Position numbers and translations under genes: made by a program | The notes under the pieces: model-generated | Seen by the model: only the letters and a program-made list of their open reading frames with translations | Databases searched by the model: none | Told to the model about the DNA's origin: nothing | In this document: in pieces, positions 5,834-16,458 of the stretch | Layout of the letters: each line of letters begins with the position of its first letter | How positions within the stretch are numbered: position 1 is the first letter of the stretch | NCBI GenBank assembly: GCA_038824665.1 | Contig: JAWBBK010000001.1 | Location: 453,854 to 476,399 of the forward strand | Length of the DNA: 22,546 nucleotides | Direction of reading: 5' to 3' | Source of the DNA: Acidilobaceae archaeon | Lineage (GTDB): Archaea; Thermoproteota; Thermoprotei_A; Sulfolobales; Acidilobaceae

Positions 5834-6607
5834 TTATTCACTTATAGGCGCAATGAATATCGTTGTCTTCTCTCCAGCAGGCAAATCGAACGTAACTTTA
5901 GCTGGGTAGTTAGTAGCGAACTCTAACTTAACGACCTCTGCCGCTCCAGCAGGCTTTACGGCTATGTCTATAGAGGACCTGGAGTAAAGAGATTCCGCTG
6001 ACTCTTCGACGTCTAACTCAAGAAGAGGGTCTCCAGGTTTCAGCGTCCACTCATAAGACTTCCCTTCGCCTCTAGCTATAACCTTAACCTCTCCTGGAGC
6101 TGCTCTCACAGCTAAGGTATCGCCAACTACTTTAACGTCTTGAGAGAGTAGCTTGAAGTCTTTTGAGTTCATGGAAAACCTAGCAGTCGCATTAAGCCTA
6201 AGCTCTTTATAGTCTGCTCCGCTCGTTGAAAGAATAGGTATCTCAAACGTTCTTCTCATTCCCGTCTTCCTATCTACAAGAGTCGACATGATTACGTTCG
6301 CGTCTTCAGTCATCTCTAACTCTAGGACGTCGTTTCTTCCTGCTCTTTTAGCTATTCTGTGAAGGTCTTCGGTCTTTATCAGAAGTCTCATGGGGCTTGT
6401 TACCTCGAAAGCTTCTAGAGAGAGAGGCGGTATGGAGACTACTGCCATTAATGTCTTATCTGGACTCATCATCCAAAGCGTTAATCCGTCTTCTGAGACC
6501 ATTACGTTACACTCATCGCTTATTTTCGACAAAGCGTACGTAACATATTTGAACTTAGAAGCCTTAGGATAAGCCAGTCTGAACAGCAACTCTAGTCTCC
6601 GCTCCAA
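5834..6607 (-). CDS. pcn: DNA polymerase sliding clamp (PCNA), one of the crenarchaeal paralogues
   Basis: 257 aa; ALSKISDE, EDGLTLWMMSPDKTLM, FEIP, ESLYS, LEFATNYPAKVTF and terminal IFIAP match the PCNA fold signature. Confidence 0.88.
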   Translation of the reverse strand: MERRLELLFRLAYPKASKFKYVTYALSKISDECNVMVSEDGLTLWMMSPDKTLMAVVSIPPLSLEAFEVTSPMRLLIKTEDLHRIAKRAGRNDVLELEMTEDANVIMSTLVDRKTGMRRTFEIPILSTSGADYKELRLNATARFSMNSKDFKLLSQDVKVVGDTLAVRAAPGEVKVIARGEGKSYEWTLKPGDPLLELDVEESAESLYSRSSIDIAVKPAGAAEVVKLEFATNYPAKVTFDLPAGEKTTIFIAPISE

Positions 6608-6706
6608 TCAGCTTCCTTCCAGCTTAAAAAGGTGTTGAACGCTTTTCTAGAACTTCATGAGATCATAGAAGAGCTTTTCTCTATATTCAAAATCTTGGAG
6701 AGGTGT

Positions 6707-7834
6707 TTGAGGGTAGCCGTCATAGGAGCGGGGTTCTCTGGACTCGTGTTTGCAGTAAAGCTGGCTGAGATAGGACTCAACGTAGTCGTGTATGAAGAGC
6801 ATGAAAGCGTGGGAATCCCTACCCACTGCACGGGGCTCGTGTCTTCGAAGACCGTGAAGCTCATCGGAAACCCCGCACAAAATTGTATAGAGAGAATATA
6901 TGATTCTTTAGAACTAATTGGCAAGAGGTCTAAAGTCACTATTGTCGTCAAAGAAGGGATCGTCAAACTAGACAGAGTAGCTTTAGAGAAAGAGCTTTTG
7001 CGAAAAGCTGAGAAGATAGGAGTTGAGACAGAACTAGGAGTAAGGGTTGAACGAGTTACTCCTGAAGGAGAAGTCAAAGCGAAAGGGTTCTCTAAGAGTT
7101 ACGATGTTGTAGTGTTGGCTGAAGGATACAGAGGAGAACTCAAGAGAACTCTTGGACTTGATTTCGAATCTAAGACGGTTTACGGAGTGAACAGAGATTA
7201 TCCAGCCTCATCTGATGGAAAAGCCATCGAGGTGTATTTAGGTGAGAGGTTTCCTTACGGCTTTTTCGCCTGGCGTCTCTATAGAGATAGAGAAATCACT
7301 TTAGGTCTTGGAGCTCCTACGAAAAGAGCTGCCGCAAAGCTACTAGAAAAGCTAGAGAAAACCTTTAATCTAAAGAGTTCTAAGAGGTCCTATGGAGGCA
7401 TCATAGTCCTAGGGCCTCCAGCAAAGAGGTTCAGGAATAACAGGGTCGTGATCGTAGGCGATGCTGCTGCGTTAAACAAGCCACTTACAGGAGGAGGGCT
7501 TTATCCAAACGCTCTAGCTGCTGAAATATCGAAACGTCTCATAGCTATAGGGGAAGACCCTCTTAAAGCTCTTCAAACATCTCTTGAAAGCGTAGCTCAC
7601 AAACTTAGAAGAGTCACCCCTATAGCTAGAGTCGTTCAGAGCTGTCCTCTATTAGTTGAAGAAGTTTTAGATGTTCTCTCAAGCACATTAAGAGGCGATC
7701 CCATAGAGCTAGATTATGACAACCATCTAGAAGACTTGCTCCGTATTGTAGCGACAGTGTTGAGGAGTCCTAGAACAGCACGCTTACTAAGTCCTAACGT
7801 ACTGAAGTCTCTGTTTTCGTGCTTTAAGCTATAA
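6707..7834 (+). CDS. FAD-dependent oxidoreductase, geranylgeranyl-reductase family paralogue
   Basis: VAVIGAGFSG Rossmann motif, EEH..VGIPTHCTGLVS, LDRVALEK, VGDAAALNKPLTGGGL. Start placed at TTG 6707 after SD-like GGAGAGGTG (ORF track extends to 6632). Confidence 0.8.
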   Translation: MRVAVIGAGFSGLVFAVKLAEIGLNVVVYEEHESVGIPTHCTGLVSSKTVKLIGNPAQNCIERIYDSLELIGKRSKVTIVVKEGIVKLDRVALEKELLRKAEKIGVETELGVRVERVTPEGEVKAKGFSKSYDVVVLAEGYRGELKRTLGLDFESKTVYGVNRDYPASSDGKAIEVYLGERFPYGFFAWRLYRDREITLGLGAPTKRAAAKLLEKLEKTFNLKSSKRSYGGIIVLGPPAKRFRNNRVVIVGDAAALNKPLTGGGLYPNALAAEISKRLIAIGEDPLKALQTSLESVAHKLRRVTPIARVVQSCPLLVEEVLDVLSSTLRGDPIELDYDNHLEDLLRIVATVLRSPRTARLLSPNVLKSLFSCFKL

Positions 7835-7846
7835 ATCTGAAGTTGT

Positions 7847-7912
7847 TCGTCGGGCTCGAACGGTTCATGAACTCCTCATTGTTTCAGCCAACCCAGCGAC
7901 TCTCATCGCCTT
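7847..7912 (-). ncRNA. Candidate box C/D guide sRNA
   Basis: Minus strand: C box GCGATGA (7909-7903), 15-nt spacer, D' CTGA (7887-7884), 4 nt, C' ATGAGGA (7879-7873), 19-nt spacer, D-like CCGA (7853-7850). TATA lies about 25 nt upstream. Confidence 0.5.
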
Positions 7913-7934
7913 CGATCTAACAATTGGCTTAATG

Positions 7935-7942
7935 CTTATAAG
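7935..7942. promoter_or_regulatory. Palindromic TATA element CTTATAAG, possibly bidirectional (ABC binding protein and candidate sRNA)
   Basis: Perfect palindrome 53 nt upstream of ATG 7995 (SD GGGTGA at 7983-7988) and about 25 nt from the C box on the opposite strand. Confidence 0.5.
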
Positions 7943-7994
7943 TCTCCACAGAGAAGACGCTAGAAACCAGTTAGTCTAGAGTGGGTGAGACTCC

Positions 7995-9413
7995 ATGTTA
8001 AGAAGATTAGTTATCTTAGCCCTCATAGCTATCATCTTGACCGGCGTTTTCACTCCCAAAATATTCGCCCAAAAGCCTACAGCAGAGGAGACAGGACTCG
8101 TCCTCGTTAGCTTCGAAGAAGGAGTGGATTTCATGACAGAGGCTGCAAAGTACTCAATCGCATATGAAATCAAATGGTACGGAACAGATGGTTTAGCCTT
8201 AAGCACTAAGCTCCTTGAAAGCGCTACCGCGAGAGACTTAGCGATCAAAACAAATTTCAGAGCCACTATAGCTCTGAGCTTAGAGAACTTAGAGCTCGTG
8301 AGAAAAGTATACTGGGAAGTTAAAGATAGAGTAGGTTATGCTCCGGAAAGCTATTCGTTCAACACCTATGACGCAGTTTGGGTTATAGGTCTTGCTGTAG
8401 TAGCTGCAGGAGGAGCTACAGATGCTGAAGTGAGTACTATAGCTGAACTCATTCCGAAAATAGTTGAGATCTACTACGGAGCTTCAGGCAAAATAGTTCT
8501 CGACGAAAACGGGGATAGAGTCGGTAGTGATTACGGTATATTCGGAATTGTTGAAAAAGAAGGTAACTATATGTGGGTTCTAAAAGAAATGTGGAGCATG
8601 GAGAGAGACAGCATCACGAAATATGAAACAGACCCGCTAACTACGAGACCCACAGGAAGCCCAATGCCTACTGTAGACGTAGCGAAGCTGAGACAACTCG
8701 TGGTCAAAGAGCCTCCAGCTGTAGTCACTGTGACTATAGGTGCACTTTATCCGCTGACTGGAGGTTTAGCGTCGTTCGGTAGAACTAACGTTGAAGCTCT
8801 TAAAATTGCCATAGAAGACTTGAACAAATGGTTAGAAGCTAACGGCTTCAAGTTCAGGTTTAGTTATGAAATTAGAGATACAGCAACAAGCCCTGAAGTC
8901 GCTCTCGATAGATTTAGAGAGCTCTACGCTAGAGGTATAAGAGTCTTCGTAGGCCCTATGGCTAGCAGAGAGCTAGCGAAGATAAGAGATGAGATATTAG
9001 GAGGGAGCAGAGCTGTCGTTATAAGCCCTTCGAGCACCTCGCCGCTCCTCAAAACTAAAGACACGATATTCAGATTCCCGCCACCTGACGACTATCAGTG
9101 TTTAGCTATAGCTAGAATGATAAAGAATGATGGAGTTAAACAAATCGTTATAGTCTATCTGAACGACGATTGGGGTAGAATGCTTGCAGACTACACCAAG
9201 AGAAGAGCTGAAGAGCTAGGTATAACGGTTCTCGGGATGTATGCCTACGATCCGAATAACCCAGGGTTCCCATCTCTAGCAGAGACTGTGTTTAAGACTA
9301 TTGAAGCCAATGTAGCTGGACCTGGCGTCTCACCGGCTATCATAGTAGCTCTAGTAGTAATCGTAGCAATCGTGATCGTTGGAGGATATCTAGTACTCAA
9401 GAAAAGAAAATAA
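7995..9413 (+). CDS. Branched-chain amino acid (Liv/HAAT-type) ABC transporter substrate-binding protein, apparently circularly permuted, with signal peptide and C-terminal TM anchor
   Basis: Signal peptide aa 1-25. Type I PBP motifs IGALYPLTGGLASFG, DT..SPE, VGPMAS, ISPSSTSP, IFRF, NDDWG at aa 245-440, and WYGTDG, YDAVW, GASGKIVLDENGDR at aa 34-200. TM at aa 448-468 followed by KKRK. Confidence 0.88.
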   Translation: MLRRLVILALIAIILTGVFTPKIFAQKPTAEETGLVLVSFEEGVDFMTEAAKYSIAYEIKWYGTDGLALSTKLLESATARDLAIKTNFRATIALSLENLELVRKVYWEVKDRVGYAPESYSFNTYDAVWVIGLAVVAAGGATDAEVSTIAELIPKIVEIYYGASGKIVLDENGDRVGSDYGIFGIVEKEGNYMWVLKEMWSMERDSITKYETDPLTTRPTGSPMPTVDVAKLRQLVVKEPPAVVTVTIGALYPLTGGLASFGRTNVEALKIAIEDLNKWLEANGFKFRFSYEIRDTATSPEVALDRFRELYARGIRVFVGPMASRELAKIRDEILGGSRAVVISPSSTSPLLKTKDTIFRFPPPDDYQCLAIARMIKNDGVKQIVIVYLNDDWGRMLADYTKRRAEELGITVLGMYAYDPNNPGFPSLAETVFKTIEANVAGPGVSPAIIVALVVIVAIVIVGGYLVLKKRK

Positions 9414-9529
9414 TGTCTACAACAAAAAAGCTTCAAAACCTCCTAAACACCTCACTAATTTTTTAAGCTCTCTATTAATAGTGGAGTTGAAGCACGATTC
9501 TACGAAGGTCTTGAGGTGACAATAACGAG

Positions 9530-10291
9530 GTGGACGCGCTACTAGAAGTAAAAAACATATGGAAAAGCTTTGGAGCCTTAGTAGCACTCAAAGGAGTATC
9601 TCTTAGAGTTCCTAAAGGAAAGATAACTTTGCTCATTGGACCTAACGGAAGCGGTAAGAGCACGTTGCTAAATATAATAAGCGGACTCTTAGAACCTGAT
9701 GAAGGTAAGGTGATATTTGAAGGCGTTGATATCACGAAGCTACCTTCTCACGAAAGGCATAGATTAGGTCTCGTCAGAGGCTTTCAGATCCCTAGACTCA
9801 TGCGGAACCTGTTGGTTGATGAAAACGTAGCTTTAGGAAGAGCGGACAACCCAGGAGAGAGTCTCACTCGCGCCGTTATAGAGGCCTTCTGGCTGGAGTT
9901 TGAGTCTAAAACTATAAGCGAAGCCAACAAGACTCTAGACTCTCTAGCGCTTAGTCAAGCTAAAGGGAAAAAGCCTGGAGAATTAAGCGGAGGTCAGATG
10001 AAGCTCTTAGACTTAGCGAGAGTCATGATGGCTAAGAACGTGAAACTAGTTCTTCTCGACGAGCCTACAGCAGGAGTTAATCCTGTTTTAGCTCACGAGA
10101 TCTTCAAAGTCCTCAAGAAGTTAGCGACAGAAGGAGGACTCACGTTTCTCGTAGTAGAACACAGATTAGATATAGCCGTAGACTACGCTGATTACGCCTA
10201 TGCGCTACATCTAGGCGAAGTAATAGCTGAAGGTGATCCACACGAAGTTTTAAAGAATCCAAAAGTAATTGCAAGCTACCTCGGTGAGTAG
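9530..10291 (+). CDS. livG: Branched-chain amino acid ABC transporter ATP-binding protein (LivG-like)
   Basis: Walker A GPNGSGKST, GLVRGFQIPR, LSGGQ, LLDEPTAGVNP, VEH, terminal YLG. Confidence 0.9.
   Translation: MDALLEVKNIWKSFGALVALKGVSLRVPKGKITLLIGPNGSGKSTLLNIISGLLEPDEGKVIFEGVDITKLPSHERHRLGLVRGFQIPRLMRNLLVDENVALGRADNPGESLTRAVIEAFWLEFESKTISEANKTLDSLALSQAKGKKPGELSGGQMKLLDLARVMMAKNVKLVLLDEPTAGVNPVLAHEIFKVLKKLATEGGLTFLVVEHRLDIAVDYADYAYALHLGEVIAEGDPHEVLKNPKVIASYLGE
9635..9664 (+). repeat. 30-nt exact direct repeat, copy 1 (Walker A coding sequence)
   Basis: ATTGGACCTAACGGAAGCGGTAAGAGCACG, identical to 10393-10422. Confidence 0.9.
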
Positions 10292-10293
10292 CT

Positions 10294-11007
10294 ATGGTTT
10301 TAAGCGTAGAGTCTCTAAACGCTGGCTATGGAAAGCTTCAGATACTCTTCGACGTATCGTTTTCAGCTAAAAGAAAGGAGATAGTAGCTATAATTGGACC
10401 TAACGGAAGCGGTAAGAGCACGCTTCTCAAAGCTATATTTGGAATAGCCAACGTATATTCCGGAAGAATTCTATATCATGGAAACGACATAACTAAGATG
10501 CCTCCTCACGAGAAAGCGAGAATAGGGTTAGCCTATATGCCACAAACTGATAACGTGTTTTTAAACTTAACTGTGATAGAGAACTTAAAGATAGCCTCTT
10601 ACACTATTAACGAAGAAGATGCTGAAAGCAGAACTAAAGAGGTTCTAGAGTTCTTTCCGTTCCTCAAGAAAAAATTAGACATAAGAGCTAGCGCTCTAAG
10701 CGGAGGAGAGAGACAAATGCTAGGTATCGCTATGATCTTGATCAGAGACCCGAGCGTAGTGATGCTTGACGAACCTACAGCGGGCATCGCACCAGTTATA
10801 GCAAAACAGATGGCCACATATATATCTCGGCTTAGAGACGAGTTCGATAAGACAGTTCTATTGGTAGAACAGAACGCTAGACTAGCTCTAAACATAGCTG
10901 ACTCTGCTCTGCTATTAGTTAGCGGCAAAGTAGTCTATTTCGGAAGCGCAGAAGACCTAGCTAAAGACCCCGAGCTGGGCTCTAAATACGTGGGGCTAGC
11001 GCGTTGA
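10294..11007 (+). CDS. livF: Branched-chain amino acid ABC transporter ATP-binding protein (LivF-like)
   Basis: LNAGYG, GPNGSGKST, YMPQ..NVF..LTVIENL, LSGGERQML, LDEPTAG, VEQNA. Confidence 0.9.
   Translation: MVLSVESLNAGYGKLQILFDVSFSAKRKEIVAIIGPNGSGKSTLLKAIFGIANVYSGRILYHGNDITKMPPHEKARIGLAYMPQTDNVFLNLTVIENLKIASYTINEEDAESRTKEVLEFFPFLKKKLDIRASALSGGERQMLGIAMILIRDPSVVMLDEPTAGIAPVIAKQMATYISRLRDEFDKTVLLVEQNARLALNIADSALLLVSGKVVYFGSAEDLAKDPELGSKYVGLAR
10393..10422 (+). repeat. 30-nt exact direct repeat, copy 2
   Basis: Identical to 9635-9664. Confidence 0.9.
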
Positions 11008-12065
11008 TCGATGCCTTAGTTCTAGCGATCCCTTCTATTCAATATCTCCTTGCAGGACTCGCTTTTGCATCAAGTATTGCTTTACTCTCAGCTATGATGA
11101 CTTTAGTGTACTTAGTGACTAGAGTTCCTAACTTCGCACAAGGAACTCTAGTAATCAGTGGAGTGCTTGTCACAGTTTATTTGATAGATAGAGTATTTTA
11201 CACCCATCTAGGAAGTCCTTTCTATCTTCTTTTGTACTTAGTAGCTCCCGTAATCTCGGGAGTCTTTGTAGCTCTGATGGCCTTTTGTGAGTATCTCTTC
11301 GTGATCAGACCTCTAAGAAGTAAGGGAATAGGTGACATAGGCATCATGATATCAACTCTAGCTTTTGACGCGATCCTAGCCGGATCGTTAGCTATAGTCA
11401 CACTAGTGGTCCCAGGTGTTTACATCAAGAAGCTGATCAACATAGACCTCAGATCTCTCGATGTGCTTTTGAACACTCCTCTAGGACGATTTTACTTAAG
11501 CGATCTTCTGGTGCCTCTTATCAGCCTCGTTCTAGTCGCTCTAATGCATTACGTGTTATATAAGACCAAGTTCGGAATAGCTCTGAGAGCTTCTATAGAG
11601 AACCCAAACTTGGCTAAAGTTTTAGGCATTAACGTCGATAAGACCTATGCAATAGCTTGGCTCCTCGCAGGATTTCTCAGCGGCGCTATTGGAAGCCTCA
11701 TAGGTTTTCAGCTTTCAAGTAATTACGGAGGGATCAACCCTACAGGAACTCAATATCTCTTCTTGATATCGATATTTGCCGGCAGCGTGCTAGGAGGTAT
11801 GAGCTCTATATACCTGTCGATGCTAGGAGGCTTTATCATAGGGGTTACTGAAAGCATTTTCGTTACTACTTTAAACAACGTGTTCATGTTCGGACTGAAC
11901 GTAAACCTTCAGCTACACGCGCTTAAGGGACTCTTCAGCTTCTTAATCATAATGATCGTGCTCCTAGCCGCTCCTCAAGGACTCGCCTCAATAAATTGGG
12001 AGAGGCTTTTGGGTCTAAGAAGCAAAGGTGAGGTCGTTCATGAAAGCACTGGTGAGAGAACGTAA
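11004..12065 (+). CDS. livH: Branched-chain amino acid ABC transporter permease (LivH-like)
   Basis: VPNFAQG, TKFGIALRASIENPNLAKVLGIN, FAGSVLGGMSS, PQGL motifs; polytopic membrane protein. Confidence 0.88.
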   Translation: MIDALVLAIPSIQYLLAGLAFASSIALLSAMMTLVYLVTRVPNFAQGTLVISGVLVTVYLIDRVFYTHLGSPFYLLLYLVAPVISGVFVALMAFCEYLFVIRPLRSKGIGDIGIMISTLAFDAILAGSLAIVTLVVPGVYIKKLINIDLRSLDVLLNTPLGRFYLSDLLVPLISLVLVALMHYVLYKTKFGIALRASIENPNLAKVLGINVDKTYAIAWLLAGFLSGAIGSLIGFQLSSNYGGINPTGTQYLFLISIFAGSVLGGMSSIYLSMLGGFIIGVTESIFVTTLNNVFMFGLNVNLQLHALKGLFSFLIIMIVLLAAPQGLASINWERLLGLRSKGEVVHESTGERT

Positions 12066-13356
12066 AGACGTACTTATAGATGTCTTAACGCTAGCGTTCA
12101 TAGCGTTTCTACCTTTAGCGCTTGTAATAGCGCAAAGAAAGCTCGGCCTGATGCTGATACCGATGACAGAAGCAGACATCGTATCCATATTCGCGTTAGC
12201 TATAATCGTGCTAGCTCTGAACCTAGTTGCAGGCTATACGGGGATTCCACATTTCGGTATGCACTTTTTCGTTTACATTGGAGCCTTCGGAATGAGCGCT
12301 ATGGCTATGAGGCTCTACATAGCGACTATTGGCTTTCTAGACGAGAGTCTCAGAGAAAAGCTTCTCGGAGACGAGATAATTAAGAAATATGCAACTAGTC
12401 TGATGGAGGTCTTGACGTTAGCTACAGGTCGTTCGATAAGTCTCAGAGTCTCCGATATAGTAGGAAACCACGCTGGCTCAAGTCCTTACCTAACGCTCTT
12501 CTATATAGCCTTGGGACTTATAAGTAGCGTCTTCCTAGCTCTAGCGTTCTCGTTCCTACTAGGGCTCGTTGCTTTAAGACTAAGAGGTGACTACCTAGCT
12601 ATATTTTCTTTAATAATGGCAGAGTTCATGGTAATGGTGATCTTCCACAACTTAGAGACCTTAGGAGGAGGAGTTTATGGTGTAAGCGCGCCACGCGTTC
12701 TTCCTCAGCTAGCTGAAAATCTGAGACCTCTAGGTGAAGTCTTGGGGATAAGCTCTCCGCTAGCTTTGCTCACAGCACTCATATTGTTCATAGCTCTTGT
12801 AGCGACTTACGCTTACTCTATCAGAACCTCTAACAGTCCTCTTGGAAGGCTTTTAAGAGGGATCAGAGACGATGAACTCGTAGTAAGCATCTTCGGTAGA
12901 GACGTAGGCGTTATCAAAATGAAAGTTATCCTCCTAGGTTGCGTTATAGCGAGTCTAGCCGGAGCTCTCTACACTCTTTACATGGCTAGCGTCATACCCA
13001 GAAGCTTCAACAGAATGGATTGGACCTTCCTTCCGTGGACTATGATGATACTAGGAGGTATGGCGAACAGTAGAGGCGTTATCGTTGGAGCTCTTCTCGT
13101 TTACTTGATTAGAAGGCTTTCGAGTAGCTTAGCTCCTTCAGTTTTTGAGATCTTCTCTTCTCTCAGCGGTTTCACGCTAGAACAACATACTATAGACCAA
13201 GTTCAAGCTATAGCACCTCATATCGTTACAGGAGCTTTAGTTCTACTCGTCCTTTACCTAAGACCTCAAGGACTGTTACCAGAAGAGCCTAGCAAGACGT
13301 TGAGGCCTAAGGTTTTATCTACTTCGTTCCGTAGCTCTTCTCAAGAATCTTCTTAA
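12040..13356 (+). CDS. livM: Branched-chain amino acid ABC transporter permease (LivM-like)
   Basis: LNLVAGYTG, LRLRGDYLAI, GGGVYG, SPLGRLLRGIRDDE, ILGG, RPQGL. Start at ATG 12040 after GGTGAGGT SD (ORF track gives GTG 12028). Confidence 0.88.
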   Translation: MKALVRERKDVLIDVLTLAFIAFLPLALVIAQRKLGLMLIPMTEADIVSIFALAIIVLALNLVAGYTGIPHFGMHFFVYIGAFGMSAMAMRLYIATIGFLDESLREKLLGDEIIKKYATSLMEVLTLATGRSISLRVSDIVGNHAGSSPYLTLFYIALGLISSVFLALAFSFLLGLVALRLRGDYLAIFSLIMAEFMVMVIFHNLETLGGGVYGVSAPRVLPQLAENLRPLGEVLGISSPLALLTALILFIALVATYAYSIRTSNSPLGRLLRGIRDDELVVSIFGRDVGVIKMKVILLGCVIASLAGALYTLYMASVIPRSFNRMDWTFLPWTMMILGGMANSRGVIVGALLVYLIRRLSSSLAPSVFEIFSSLSGFTLEQHTIDQVQAIAPHIVTGALVLLVLYLRPQGLLPEEPSKTLRPKVLSTSFRSSSQESS

Positions 13357-15937
13357 AGACATAAGATAGTACTCCACCGCTCTTATAATACTCGACTTCT
13401 GCCCAGCTGTCTAGTCTGAGTTTAGCTTTCAGCTCTAAAGTAGAGCCGTCGCTTCTTCTTATGACTACTTTAACTTTAGAGCCTGGAGCTATTCCTTCAC
13501 TTAAGCCCAGTATGTCGATCTCCTCATCGCCTCTGAGAACTTCTATAAGCCTCTCTTCGACTTCTAGCGGAAGGATTCCTACAGCTACAAGGTTTCTTCT
13601 GTGAATTCTCTCAAAGCTTTCAGCTATAACGGCTTTAACGCCTAAAAGTCTTGGAGCTCTAGCTGCCCAGTCTCTGCTACTACCCATTCCGTAGTTCTTA
13701 CCGGCTACAATAACTGCAGGAACTCCTCTTGACATATAGGTCTTGCTAGCCTCGAAGATCGTAGTCTCAACGCCTTCAGGCCAGATCTTGGTCCAAGCTC
13801 CACGTTTTTCTGAGATCAAATTCTTAAAGCCAGGACTATCGAAAGTCCCTCTCACCATGACCTCATGATTGCCTCTCATGGAACCGAAGGTCAGTCCTTC
13901 AGCTTCTGGGTCTATGCCGAGCTCAAGCAGATATCTTCCAGCTTGAGAGTCTCTTTTTATCGGTCCTGCTGGGCTTATGTGGTCAGTGTTCGTGTTGTCT
14001 GGAGCTAAGACTAAGATCCTGGCTCCTATAATGTCCTTAGTTCTCTCCTCCTCGCTAACAAACAAAAGAGGAGGTTTGACTATCTGAACGCTGAACTTCC
14101 AGTCGTAAAGTAATCCTTCTGGAGCCTCTATCTTTAACCACTCAGATGGCTCTTGGATATAACAGAAGACTTCTATTGAAAGTCTTTTCAAGTCGAGCTT
14201 TTCGAGTTCTCTGTGAACCTCGTCCTCTTTAGGCCAAAGCTCTTTTAGATAGACAGGCTTCCCGTTTGGGTCTAAGCCTATAGGTTCGTTCTCTAAGTCT
14301 ATATCTATGCGTCCAGTCAAGGCATAAACTACCACTAGAGGCGGACTAGCTAGATAAACGCTTTTGATAAGAGGATGAATCCTTCCTGAGAAGTTCCTGT
14401 TTCCGCTTATGACGGCTACTAGATGAACTCCTCTTCTAGCCGCTTCTTCAACTACTGGAACTAGAGGACCGCTGTTACCTATGCAAGTAGCGCAAGCATA
14501 GCCAACAACATGAAAACGAAGAGCTTCAAGATATGGCATTAAGTTGAGCTCTTCTAGAACCCTGACAGCTAGCCTACTACCAGGAGTGAAGCTTGTCTTA
14601 ACCCAAGGCTTTACCTGAAGACCTCGTTTGACAGCACGCTTAGCTATCAACCCTGCCGCTACCAAAAGATCCAAGCTTCCTGTGTTCGTACAACTAGCTA
14701 TAGCCGCCAAAGCTACATATCCGTCTTCTATCTTGTACTTGACTTTATCGAATTCCGCTTCGTAAGATGAGCTTTGAACTGGCAGATAGGTTTTAACTTT
14801 AGTCTTGACTTCTTTTAAGGATATTCTTTCAAAGGGGTTCTTAGGTCCCGCTATTGATGGTTCTACAGAACTCAAGTCTAGCTCTATGACCTCGCTGTAG
14901 TTGGGTTCGTTTTGAACATCGTACCACAGCCCTGTCCTTTTGGTATACGCTTCTATTAGCTTTATCCATGACTCGTCTCTACCGGTAATGCGGAGATATT
15001 TTAAAGTGTTCTCGTCTATTGGAAAGAAGCCTACTGTAGCTCCATACTCTGGAGCCATGTTGGCTACTGGAAATCTGGTCCAGACAGAGAGCTTGTTATA
15101 GGACTCTCCGAAGAACTCTACAAAAGCTTCTACAACTCCTCTCTTTCTAAGTAGCTCAGTTACGTAAAGAGCTAAGTCTGTAGCCGTAACTCCCGGTCTC
15201 AGCTCTCCATACAGCCTCACTCCGACGACTTTAGGAACCGCTATGTAGTAAGGCTCTCCTAGCATTACTGCCTCTGCTTCGAGTCCTCCAACTCCCCAGC
15301 CTAGAACGCCTAAAGCGTTGACCATGGTCGTATGGCTGTCTGTACCAAGAACTGTGTCAGGAGTTATCCAGAGCTCTCCCCTTTTCTCTTCTAAACGAAC
15401 AACTGTAGCTAGTTGTTCTACGTTGATCTGATGTATTATACCGTTGCCTGGAGGTATCACCCTAAAGTTCTTGAAGGCTTTTTGAGCCCATTTGAGTAGT
15501 CTGAACTTATCTCTGTTTCTAAGCGCCTCAAGCCTCATGTTCTCTCCTAAAGACAATGACGATCCGAAGCTGTCTACCTGAAGGCTATGGTCTACTATGA
15601 GGTCTACCTCAACGATTGGATCAACAACTCTAGGGTCTAAACCTCTCTGAGCTACAGCTTCTCTTAAAAGAGCTAGATCGAGAGCTAGAGCGACTCCTGT
15701 GAGGTCTTGCGATATGAGTCTAGAGGGATAGAAGGAGATCTCCAAGTCTGTGCCCGACTTCCACTTGCTTAAAGCCTCTAGCGCTCGTTCAGCCTCGTCG
15801 CTAGGAAGACTTCTAGCTACGTTCTCAGCTAGTAGCCTTATAACATAAGGAGCTTCGTGGATCCAGTCTAAGCTCTTGAGGTCCACGAACTTAGCCTTAC
15901 CGTAAATAGTTTCAAGAAGTCCAAATCTGACTTCCAA
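13319..15937 (-). CDS. acnA: Aconitate hydratase A (AcnA/IRP family)
   Basis: QDLTGV, DHSLQVD, PPGNGIIHQIN, GTDSHTTM, NMAPEYGAT, Fe-S ligands ASCTNT and GYACATCIGNSG, SGNRNF, TDHISPAG, GSSRDWAA. Start probably TTG near 15937-15943 after AGGTGA (ORF track extends to 16036). Confidence 0.95.
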   Translation of the reverse strand: MEVRFGLLETIYGKAKFVDLKSLDWIHEAPYVIRLLAENVARSLPSDEAERALEALSKWKSGTDLEISFYPSRLISQDLTGVALALDLALLREAVAQRGLDPRVVDPIVEVDLIVDHSLQVDSFGSSLSLGENMRLEALRNRDKFRLLKWAQKAFKNFRVIPPGNGIIHQINVEQLATVVRLEEKRGELWITPDTVLGTDSHTTMVNALGVLGWGVGGLEAEAVMLGEPYYIAVPKVVGVRLYGELRPGVTATDLALYVTELLRKRGVVEAFVEFFGESYNKLSVWTRFPVANMAPEYGATVGFFPIDENTLKYLRITGRDESWIKLIEAYTKRTGLWYDVQNEPNYSEVIELDLSSVEPSIAGPKNPFERISLKEVKTKVKTYLPVQSSSYEAEFDKVKYKIEDGYVALAAIASCTNTGSLDLLVAAGLIAKRAVKRGLQVKPWVKTSFTPGSRLAVRVLEELNLMPYLEALRFHVVGYACATCIGNSGPLVPVVEEAARRGVHLVAVISGNRNFSGRIHPLIKSVYLASPPLVVVYALTGRIDIDLENEPIGLDPNGKPVYLKELWPKEDEVHRELEKLDLKRLSIEVFCYIQEPSEWLKIEAPEGLLYDWKFSVQIVKPPLLFVSEEERTKDIIGARILVLAPDNTNTDHISPAGPIKRDSQAGRYLLELGIDPEAEGLTFGSMRGNHEVMVRGTFDSPGFKNLISEKRGAWTKIWPEGVETTIFEASKTYMSRGVPAVIVAGKNYGMGSSRDWAARAPRLLGVKAVIAESFERIHRRNLVAVGILPLEVEERLIEVLRGDEEIDILGLSEGIAPGSKVKVVIRRSDGSTLELKAKLRLDSWAEVEYYKSGGVLSYVFKKILEKSYGTK

Positions 15938-16458
15938 ACTCAAGTCACCTATCCATTCGAACTCACGACTATCCGCACTGCTTAATAGAGTGACGCCTAT
16001 AATTGTTGTCGCTACGAAACGATTAACTGAACGCATGCGAGAGCGCTTTCTACAGCTCTACAACTTTTAGACCGATGCTCGTACAACGCGTAGATCCTCA
16101 AACTTTATAAACGATAGAAAACCCTCGTCTTAACTCTCACTTAACTCCCTCATCTTATCCCTTTACAGTATAGCGATCTATCGTTAACGCTTTACATAGC
16201 TGAAACCTGGTCACGATGAGCTAAATGGAAGATCGCTTAGAGTTGAAGCTCTTCAAAGAACGTTGAAGCCTTCGCTTTCAGCTTGTGACTTCTTTCAAAT
16301 AAAGTTAGAGAACTCAGTTGAGGTCGTCTCAAATAACAACAATTGAAAATCAAAACACGTTCGTAACGAGAGCTTCTAAGACCTGTCTCTAGCTATAGCT
16401 CATAGAATCTATTAAGCGTTCCTCAAGCGAGATCGTGAAGAGAAGAGAGGGACTCGAT

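Follow-up and report, generated by a model that had tools for sequence, protein, structure and literature searches.

Natural circular permutations of proteins are usually ancient, and their origin, whether by duplication and trimming, by fission and fusion or by cut-and-paste, is argued from indirect traces. Among the type I (cluster B) periplasmic binding proteins a natural case has been described in Treponema pallidum: TpMglB-2 (Tp0684), a circularly permuted sugar-binding lipoprotein whose structure has been solved (Brautigam et al. 2016, PMC4990184). In it some 100 residues, forming the first three strands of lobe 1, stand at the C-terminus and the chain crosses the hinge a fourth time; the authors suggested the class “Type Ic / Cluster Bc” and, speculatively, a link to tethering (PMC4990184). 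The present work concerns a substrate-binding protein gene in a stretch of 22,546 nucleotides from an Acidilobaceae archaeon (GCA_038824665.1, contig JAWBBK010000001.1, positions 453,854 to 476,399), referred to below as the window and numbered from its first letter. The open reading frame at 7995..9413 (+ strand) is confirmed as a circular permutant of the LivJ/LivK fold (type I, cluster B, Peripla_BP_6). We think it quite probable that this is a genuine, working natural permutant which serves as the surface receptor of a Liv/HAAT-type importer, and that the rewiring has arisen repeatedly in the family.

The frame is intact and encodes 472 residues, identical to those quoted in the original prediction, which was made from the sequence of the window and had claimed that the two halves of the fold are swapped. 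When the whole protein is scanned against Pfam, residues 245-429 match positions 1-183 of the 343 in the Peripla_BP_6 profile (expectation value 8e-31, 108 bits against a cut-off of 31.7), and ANF_receptor scores 105 bits. When the N-terminal part is scanned alone (nt 8094-8726), residues 36-185 match positions 183-350 of the 353 in ANF_receptor (5e-8, 32.7 bits against a curated cut-off of 25.4). These are the two partial matches in inverted order, C-terminal residues to the N-part of the profile and N-terminal residues to its C-part, that the prediction expected from such a search. Both halves of the fold are thus present, since profile positions 1-183 and 183-350 are covered and the single-domain structural model is confident, and that two half-matches above threshold should complement each other exactly in their profile ranges by chance has negligible probability. 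The family order, with the first strand at the N-terminus and the hairpin at the C-terminus, is not kept. The NCBIfam profile NF011933 aligns only with residues 243-412 of the query (profile positions 24-193 of 370, 39 bits against a cut-off of 477), while it runs colinearly through a canonical relative, P0010 (residues 30-395 to profile positions 14-360).

Comparison with homologues gives the same picture. A word-indexed search returned 72 homologues, each of which was compared with the query by BLASTP. The swapped order of the query is shared by 11 of the 72 (P0002-P0009, P0017, P0019 and the partial P0020, at 41-100% identity), 49 align as two inverted pieces, and 12 match module A, the first half of the canonical fold, alone. 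P0010 is an example of the inverted kind: query residues 243-442 align with its residues 40-240 at 54% identity, and query residues 31-236 with its residues 245-449 at 46%. All named sources of the homologues are “Acidilobaceae archaeon”, and the DNA occurs in hot-spring metagenomes. All nine sequence matches in the PDB pair query residues 242-439 with approximately residues 3-228 of the chains, and no solved structure with the swapped order was found among them. Among the significant matches in Pfam and to PDB sequences there is no sugar-binding family; all are of the Peripla_BP_6 / ANF_receptor kind and most are Liv-type proteins.

The canonical order in the archaeal family is signal peptide, module A, module B with its final beta-hairpin, a tail of about 40 residues (..DPFAERP..LP..), a Pro/Thr stretch, a transmembrane anchor and basic residues; the permuted order is signal peptide, B, tail, A, a Pro/Thr stretch which is short or missing, and the anchor. 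In the query, all of whose elements lie on the + strand, the signal peptide (aa 1-26, MLRR...KIFAQ; 7995..8072) is recognized from its sequence, from a helix at residues 2-18 in the AlphaFold model and from the homologous peptides of canonical and permuted relatives, which end in ..SSAQ or ..SQAQ; cleavage presumably follows AQ. Module B, the second half of the canonical type I fold (aa 34-204; 8094..8606), is assigned by ANF_receptor positions 183-350 of 353 and by BLASTP, and contains the remainder of lobe 2, the second part of lobe 1 and the C-terminal beta-hairpin. A Pro/Thr-containing joint (aa 205-244; 8607..8726), which aligns with the C-terminal tail of P0010, leads from the old C-terminus to the old N-terminus. 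Module A (aa 245-440; 8727..9314), assigned by Peripla_BP_6 positions 1-183 of 343 and by alignment of the model, contains the first part of lobe 1 and the first part of lobe 2, and closes with a helix at residues 425-439. The remaining segment (9315..9413) holds a tether at about aa 440-447 (..NVAGPGVSP), a transmembrane anchor at about aa 448-468, the residues KKRK and the stop codon; it is identified from the sequence, a predicted AlphaFold helix at 447-471 and homologous anchors in canonical relatives. The tether of the query is very short, with about 8 residues between the last helix of module A and the membrane helix.

Side-by-side sequences of the closest canonical/permuted pairs have a nearly identical signal peptide and C-terminal anchor, in unchanged positions. 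Only the two internal modules are swapped; the export signal and the anchor have stayed fixed, and what has changed is the part of the fold that they carry. The description of the protein as re-anchored at its C-terminus accordingly does not hold, since canonical relatives already possess a C-terminal Pro/Thr stretch and transmembrane anchor. The proposal of a Pro/Thr linker stands in so far as residues 205-244 do join the old termini, aligning with the C-terminal tail of P0010 and then running into the first strand of A. They are not a new flexible spacer: they are the family's own ordered tail of about 40 residues, which in canonical relatives lies between the last beta-hairpin and the Pro/Thr stretch.

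Structure prediction locates the cut. The AlphaFold input was an alignment of 44 rows, consisting of 10 permuted proteins and module-length rows from canonical loci, and the resulting model has a predicted local distance difference test score (pLDDT) of 94.9 and a predicted template modelling score of 0.89. The tail has a pLDDT of 95-98 in this model and of 95-97 in the model of canonical P0010 (pLDDT 92.5 overall), so that it is predicted to be ordered in both forms. The helix at residues 425-439 (223-239 in the canonical model) and the strand at residues 33-38 (247-252 in the canonical model) flank the new chain ends. By these models the cut point is a helix-to-strand loop within lobe 2, where the original prediction had put the new termini, and the tail is fused to the first strand of lobe 1. 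In a Foldseek search the best PDB matches of the query model are Leu/Ile/Val-binding proteins, aligned over 182-216 columns of chains of 335-396 residues. VIA-align pairs residues 244-440 of the model with 1-195 of 3ipc and 1z15, over about 190 residues at Z 11.5-13.4, the best alignments with Leu/Ile/Val-binding proteins have Z 11.5-13.8, and superposition of module A on residues 1-195 gives 2.1 A for 3IPC and 4N0Q and 6.1 A for the superopen 1Z15. As a canonical control, the P0010 model was aligned sequentially: it spans the LivK structure 3td9 from end to end (Z 41.4, 341 of 350 residues) and does the same with another 49 entries, all with a Z of at least 33.7. The top VIA match of the query model, 5er3 (263 residues, root-mean-square deviation 4.4, 10% identity), was considered as a permuted relative and rejected, because the alignment is an out-of-register pairing of two similar lobes.

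The swapped order is not confined to one genome. It occurs in 6 of the 67 species genomes of the family: G000 and G008 (genus g1), G038, G045 and G051 (three of the eight species of genus g7), and G021 (genus g9), whose gene is split over two overlapping contig ends. The group formed by P0017, P0019 and G021 is about 42% identical to the query, and its nearest relatives are canonical proteins anchored at the N-terminus. These relatives (L015 in G003, P0018 and P0100) form a canonical clade sister to the group, with an N-terminal transmembrane helix, a Ser/Thr-rich stretch and no C-terminal anchor, so that the anchoring end also varies in the family.

The number of origins was estimated from trees of the concatenated modules. 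A quick mixture-model tree of 59 rows has 5 order changes, at least 4 of which are forced by starred branches. A maximum-likelihood tree (LG+G4) of 39 rows, built without 18 distant rows and without identical or partial ones, also has 5, and none of its 200 bootstrap trees needs only 1. In approximately unbiased (AU) tests a single clade of all 13 permuted rows is rejected (p 4.6e-71), as is a single clade of P0006 and P0007 (p 1e-6); a clade uniting the query genus, P0005/P0008 and the g7 species is not rejected (p 0.14). By these trees and tests the B-A order needs at least four origins: one in this main group and one each in the groups of P0017/P0019/G021, of P0006 and of P0007.

Two origins, those of the P0006 and P0007 groups, are recent. 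The 90% cluster of P0006 has 43 members, and among the 15 listed 13 are permuted and 2 canonical; one permuted member is found on 6 contigs from four sources and another on a contig of 119,872 nt, and the canonical member P0085 has modules identical to those of the G061 gene. Canonical P0085 is 94.9% (A) and 94.5% (B) identical to permuted P0083, and canonical P0012 is 96.4% (A) and 95.0% (B) identical to permuted P0089. A finer tree, of 30 rows, resolves each permuted group as a single clade next to its canonical sister group (support 100/97 and 95/88). Back-and-forth, phase-like switching within a lineage was considered and rejected, because this tree has one clean split per lineage and no intermixing. 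No recently permuted allele was found in the 67 species genomes, and a metagenome scan with P0007 gave 7 loci of which none was permuted (five canonical, one with module A only, L044, and one truncated, L050). Two near-identical canonical genes from different samples, L047 and L048 (frames +3884 and +1632), differ in a long Pro-Thr run before the anchor, giving frames of 538 and 510 residues, which is a polymorphism of tether length.

A second cut point is also present. In G020 of genus g7 (L006, G020:C32, frame +1396, 489 aa) the order is signal peptide, second hairpin strand and tail, A, B up to the first hairpin strand, Pro/Thr stretch and anchor, and its sister species G057 (L009) has the canonical order. 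Hairpin-cut forms of this kind occur also in L034, L043 and L057, and P0193, a 462-aa protein of a distant 50% cluster with an N-terminal anchor and 34% identity to the query, is cut in the same way. Common to both cut types is the fusion of the tail to the start of A. Inspection by eye revealed no obvious microhomology at the G020/G057 junctions.

The permuted gene heads a complete set of transporter genes, as had been proposed; this is borne out by the reading of the frame and by the Pfam domains of its neighbours, all on the + strand: a livG-type ATPase at 9530..10291 (ABC_tran plus BCA_ABC_TP_C), a livF-type ATPase at 10294..11007 (ABC_tran), a livH-type permease at 11004..12065 and a livM-type permease at 12028..13356 (both BPD_transp_2). 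A livG gene lies downstream of permuted, canonical and hairpin-cut forms alike, and the same gene for a flavin adenine dinucleotide (FAD) oxidoreductase precedes the binding-protein gene in G000 and G008 (both permuted), at several canonical loci and at that of the hairpin-cut form. These shared flanking genes indicate that the forms are versions of one orthologous gene. The three permuted g7 genes lack this FAD oxidoreductase gene within 1.5 kb; in the window, the upstream region 5834-7834 holds a PCNA-like gene (- strand) and the FAD-dependent oxidoreductase gene (+ strand). Ahead of the start codon of the binding-protein gene (window 7930-7990) there is a TATA-like TTATAA at a distance of about 55 nt, and GGTGAG at 7 nt, and the 116-nt spacer before livG (9414-9529) contains a T-run at about 9459-9465; the receptor gene may therefore have its own promoter and a partial terminator. 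At the other end of the set, a 905-aa open reading frame (- strand, 13319-16036) overlaps the 3' end of livM by 38 nt.

Four alternative explanations must be weighed against a genuine and functional permutation of repeated origin, and the simplest of them, that an assembly artefact created the swapped order, is barely credible. The window does come from a metagenome-type assembly in 10 contigs, but Logan contigs from 4 runs and 3 studies cover the gene at an identity of at least 99% with no joints. The tail/A joint at 8600-8730, for which the prediction had asked for spanning reads, is bridged by contigs of two studies (8300-9192 and 8273-8820); the junction of signal peptide and B is likewise bridged (7800-8736 and 7800-8290), as is that of A and the anchor (8718-9600). 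These contigs have no joints or loose ends except an adapter, and no alternative joint was seen in them over the window gene, although rare variants could escape contigs. Near the tail/A joint, two contigs of run X1 end or start at 8718-8736, a point in the artefact's favour that is countered by the contigs of the two other studies which cross it, and run X2 has no contig over 8663-8753; these breaks could reflect a graph branch from a variant, or chance. The order recurs, at 72% identity, in G008, a single-contig genome from the same genus, and many independent assemblies, among them the 119,872-nt contig, carry it as well. Misassembly is therefore rejected. That the gene is instead an inactive relic, rearranged and no longer giving a working receptor, is very unlikely. 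The function of permuted members is predicted only, and truncated frames with module A alone show that damaging rearrangements do occur at the locus; yet the frames are intact in all 6 carrier species genomes, down to 42% identity, the predicted fold is confident, and the permuted gene is the only Peripla_BP_6 match in G000 (83% complete) and in G008, where it stands beside intact livGFHM. Among the three permuted genes of genus g7 the ratio of nonsynonymous to synonymous divergence (dN/dS) is 0.09-0.13 at a dS of 0.8-0.9, and it is as low in the tail as in the modules. The permuted orthologues are under purifying selection and the permuted gene is probably functional, with an amino acid as its probable ligand. 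It is more improbable still that the gene is a mosaic with halves from two paralogous binding-protein genes. Module A is about 54-56% and module B about 41-47% identical to canonical relatives, as a mosaic could explain, but B is less conserved than A among canonical proteins too, the nearest canonical relatives are the same for both modules (L007/P0010 and P0011), both modules of the recent pairs are 94-96% identical to one canonical gene, and the locus is syntenic with those of the canonical genes.

The remaining alternative accepts the permutation and its function, and denies only that it arose repeatedly: a single ancient swap is followed by recombination or gene conversion which homogenizes the modules within each lineage while the order is kept, so that the permuted genes appear polyphyletic. 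This too is unlikely, though less so than the alternatives above. It is encouraged by the presence of permuted and canonical alleles about 95% identical in one 90% cluster, by the compatibility of the main permuted group with one clade, and by the A-only frames L044 and P0023, which resemble recombinants or chimeras, so that both allele types meet in the same samples. Against it stand the two AU rejections of one-clade origins given above, the clean separation of permuted and canonical rows in the finer tree, and the divergence of P0017, P0019 and G021 from the query, at about 42% identity too distant for homologous recombination. The three junctions, moreover, vary in length and sequence from group to group and each resembles that of its own canonical sister, with PSKVAI versus PTVAI at the start of B and APTS versus EVQE at the tail-to-A junction; such group-specific junctions argue against a single origin with gene conversion.

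Repeated permutation of a working receptor gene thus remains the preferred reading, and a number of points weigh against it. On the structural side, the AlphaFold alignment is shallow, at 44 rows, and its half-length rows were supplied by the analyst; the fourth crossing between the lobes and the position of the canonical tail end near the start of A are predictions drawn only from pLDDT and secondary structure. On the side of function, dN/dS between the query and G008 is 0.05, at a dS which is saturated even against this nearest genome, and no RNA run turned up. On the side of repeated origin, the largest permuted group (the query genus, the g7 species and P0005/P0008) gives no sign of more than one origin, the origins of the P0006 and P0007 groups rest on metagenome proteins without DNA, P0007 occurs on just one contig, of 5.3 kb (P0089 is another member of its group), and trees of recombining genes can mislead. 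Finally, a duplicated A-B-A-B gene was sought among close relatives and was not found.

This last point concerns the mutational route. Duplication followed by trimming is the textbook route to circular permutation, and A-B-A-B is the intermediate form expected under it. Tandem A-B-A-B fusions of about 780-850 aa make up 61 of the 147 top library representatives (P0093-P0239), and the query is colinear with them across their B1-A2 junction (for example, residues 31-418 align with 244-602 of the 805-aa P0104). Longer arrays also exist: the pattern is A-B-A-B-A-B in six representatives, and single proteins reach three A-B units (P0074, 1160 aa) and five (a protein of 1943 aa). The homologue search, however, returned no close relative of 600-850 aa (three of 588-737 aa, P0057-P0059, are only 30-32% identical), and a search for longer proteins with P0013 found only a distant 1160-aa triple fusion; such a negative is weak evidence. 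With no close duplicated relative found, the duplication route is unsupported for these events. Three candidate half-trimmed A-B-A or B-A-B forms, P0148, P0198 and P0200, were rejected because they look like truncated reading frames. In the protein sequences of the P0006 lineage the cut is at ..ELT | RAIEPSK.. and nothing is duplicated or lost, which suggests a clean cut. A search for direct repeats in the window gene gave only short, weak pairs, none of them marking junctions. The A-only frames L044 (+385, 283 aa) and P0023 (275 aa) consist of signal peptide, module A, Pro/Thr stretch and anchor and lack module B; L044 has livGFHM downstream, and each frame joins a canonical-type 5' junction to a permuted-type 3' junction. 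They may be true recombinants of both allele types or assembly chimeras from mixed samples. The route itself may have led through duplication with trimming, or a segment may have been moved inside the gene in one step.

In the permuted receptor both lobes and the ligand cleft would be rebuilt from the same pieces, and for that reason the solute should bind between the lobes and pass to LivHM, driven by LivG and LivF. The connectivity would differ, probably by a fourth connection between the lobes in the model, and so would the tethering, with lobe 2 now about 8 residues from the membrane anchor. The permutation may be tolerated because the ordered tail is predicted to return the chain, already in the canonical form, from the far end of the fold towards its start.

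A bolder interpretation, which we put forward tentatively and regard as doubtful, is that the gene is a permutation hot-spot in Acidilobaceae, with five or more rewirings, two cut points, two events so recent that the alleles are 95-96% identical, apparently clean cuts and no duplicated intermediate found. If it were true, either the movement of a segment within the gene in one step would have to be efficient, or there would have to be strong selection tied to membrane tethering, and the pairs would be natural before-and-after cases for measuring the mechanism and the consequences of permutation. The material is useful in any case: one orthologous gene at one locus occurs in three forms, canonical, swapped and cut at a second point, and two canonical/permuted pairs are about 5% apart in protein, with the export signal and the membrane anchor fixed. 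Such pairs allow breakpoints to be read directly and ligand binding, hinge motion and permease docking to be compared, and let one ask whether the geometry of tethering drives rewiring, an idea already raised for TpMglB-2. There is a practical implication as well, in that half of such a protein escapes profile annotation, and sequential structure searches give it too low a score.

The query shares with the canonical LivJ/LivK proteins (1Z15, E. coli LivJ; 3TD9, Thermotoga LivK; 4N0Q, Brucella; 3IPC, Agrobacterium Atu2422) the profile family, the elements of the two-lobe fold and the LivG/F/H/M partners. It differs from them in having the order B-tail-A rather than A-B, so that sequential aligners cover half of the structure, and in its ordered tail of about 40 residues and C-terminal transmembrane anchor. 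The canonical orthologues of the same archaeal family (P0010/G006, P0013/G029, P0085/G061 and P0012) are closer, with the same locus, signal peptide, tail and anchor, the Pro/Thr stretch being short or lacking when the protein is permuted. Their identity per module is 41-56% with the query and reaches 96% with other permuted groups; they differ from the query in their A-B order, by which the P0010 model matches LivK from end to end. The tandem Liv-type fusions are colinear with the query across B1-A2 but are only 26-35% identical to it. Engineered permuted periplasmic binding proteins, used as biosensors, are man-made; as far as the partial accounts consulted go, they indicate that the fold tolerates new termini.

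TpMglB-2, as described in the consulted part of its report, resembles the query in being a natural, membrane-tethered, permuted type I binding protein, and it is functional. Unlike the query, it is a bacterial lipoprotein of the MglB sugar-binding family which is cut in lobe 1; by its Pfam and PDB matches the query has no sequence kinship to MglB-type sugar-binding proteins. In the query about 195 residues (profile positions 1-183) follow the rest of the fold, the cut is in lobe 2, and the permutation is archaeal and repeated. The moved part of TpMglB-2 is only 13% identical to its counterpart and its origin is unclear, and the consulted part of the report presents no recent canonical/permuted pairs. 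As to the novelty which the original prediction had raised, no description of a natural permuted Liv-type protein was found in the literature, in a search largely outside subscription journals, so that this part of the suggestion survives; the broader part does not, since a natural permuted type I protein had been published (PMC4990184). Natural permutation of type I binding proteins is, then, already known from TpMglB-2, and what is new here is its occurrence in a Liv-type protein, the cut in lobe 2 and the repeated origin.

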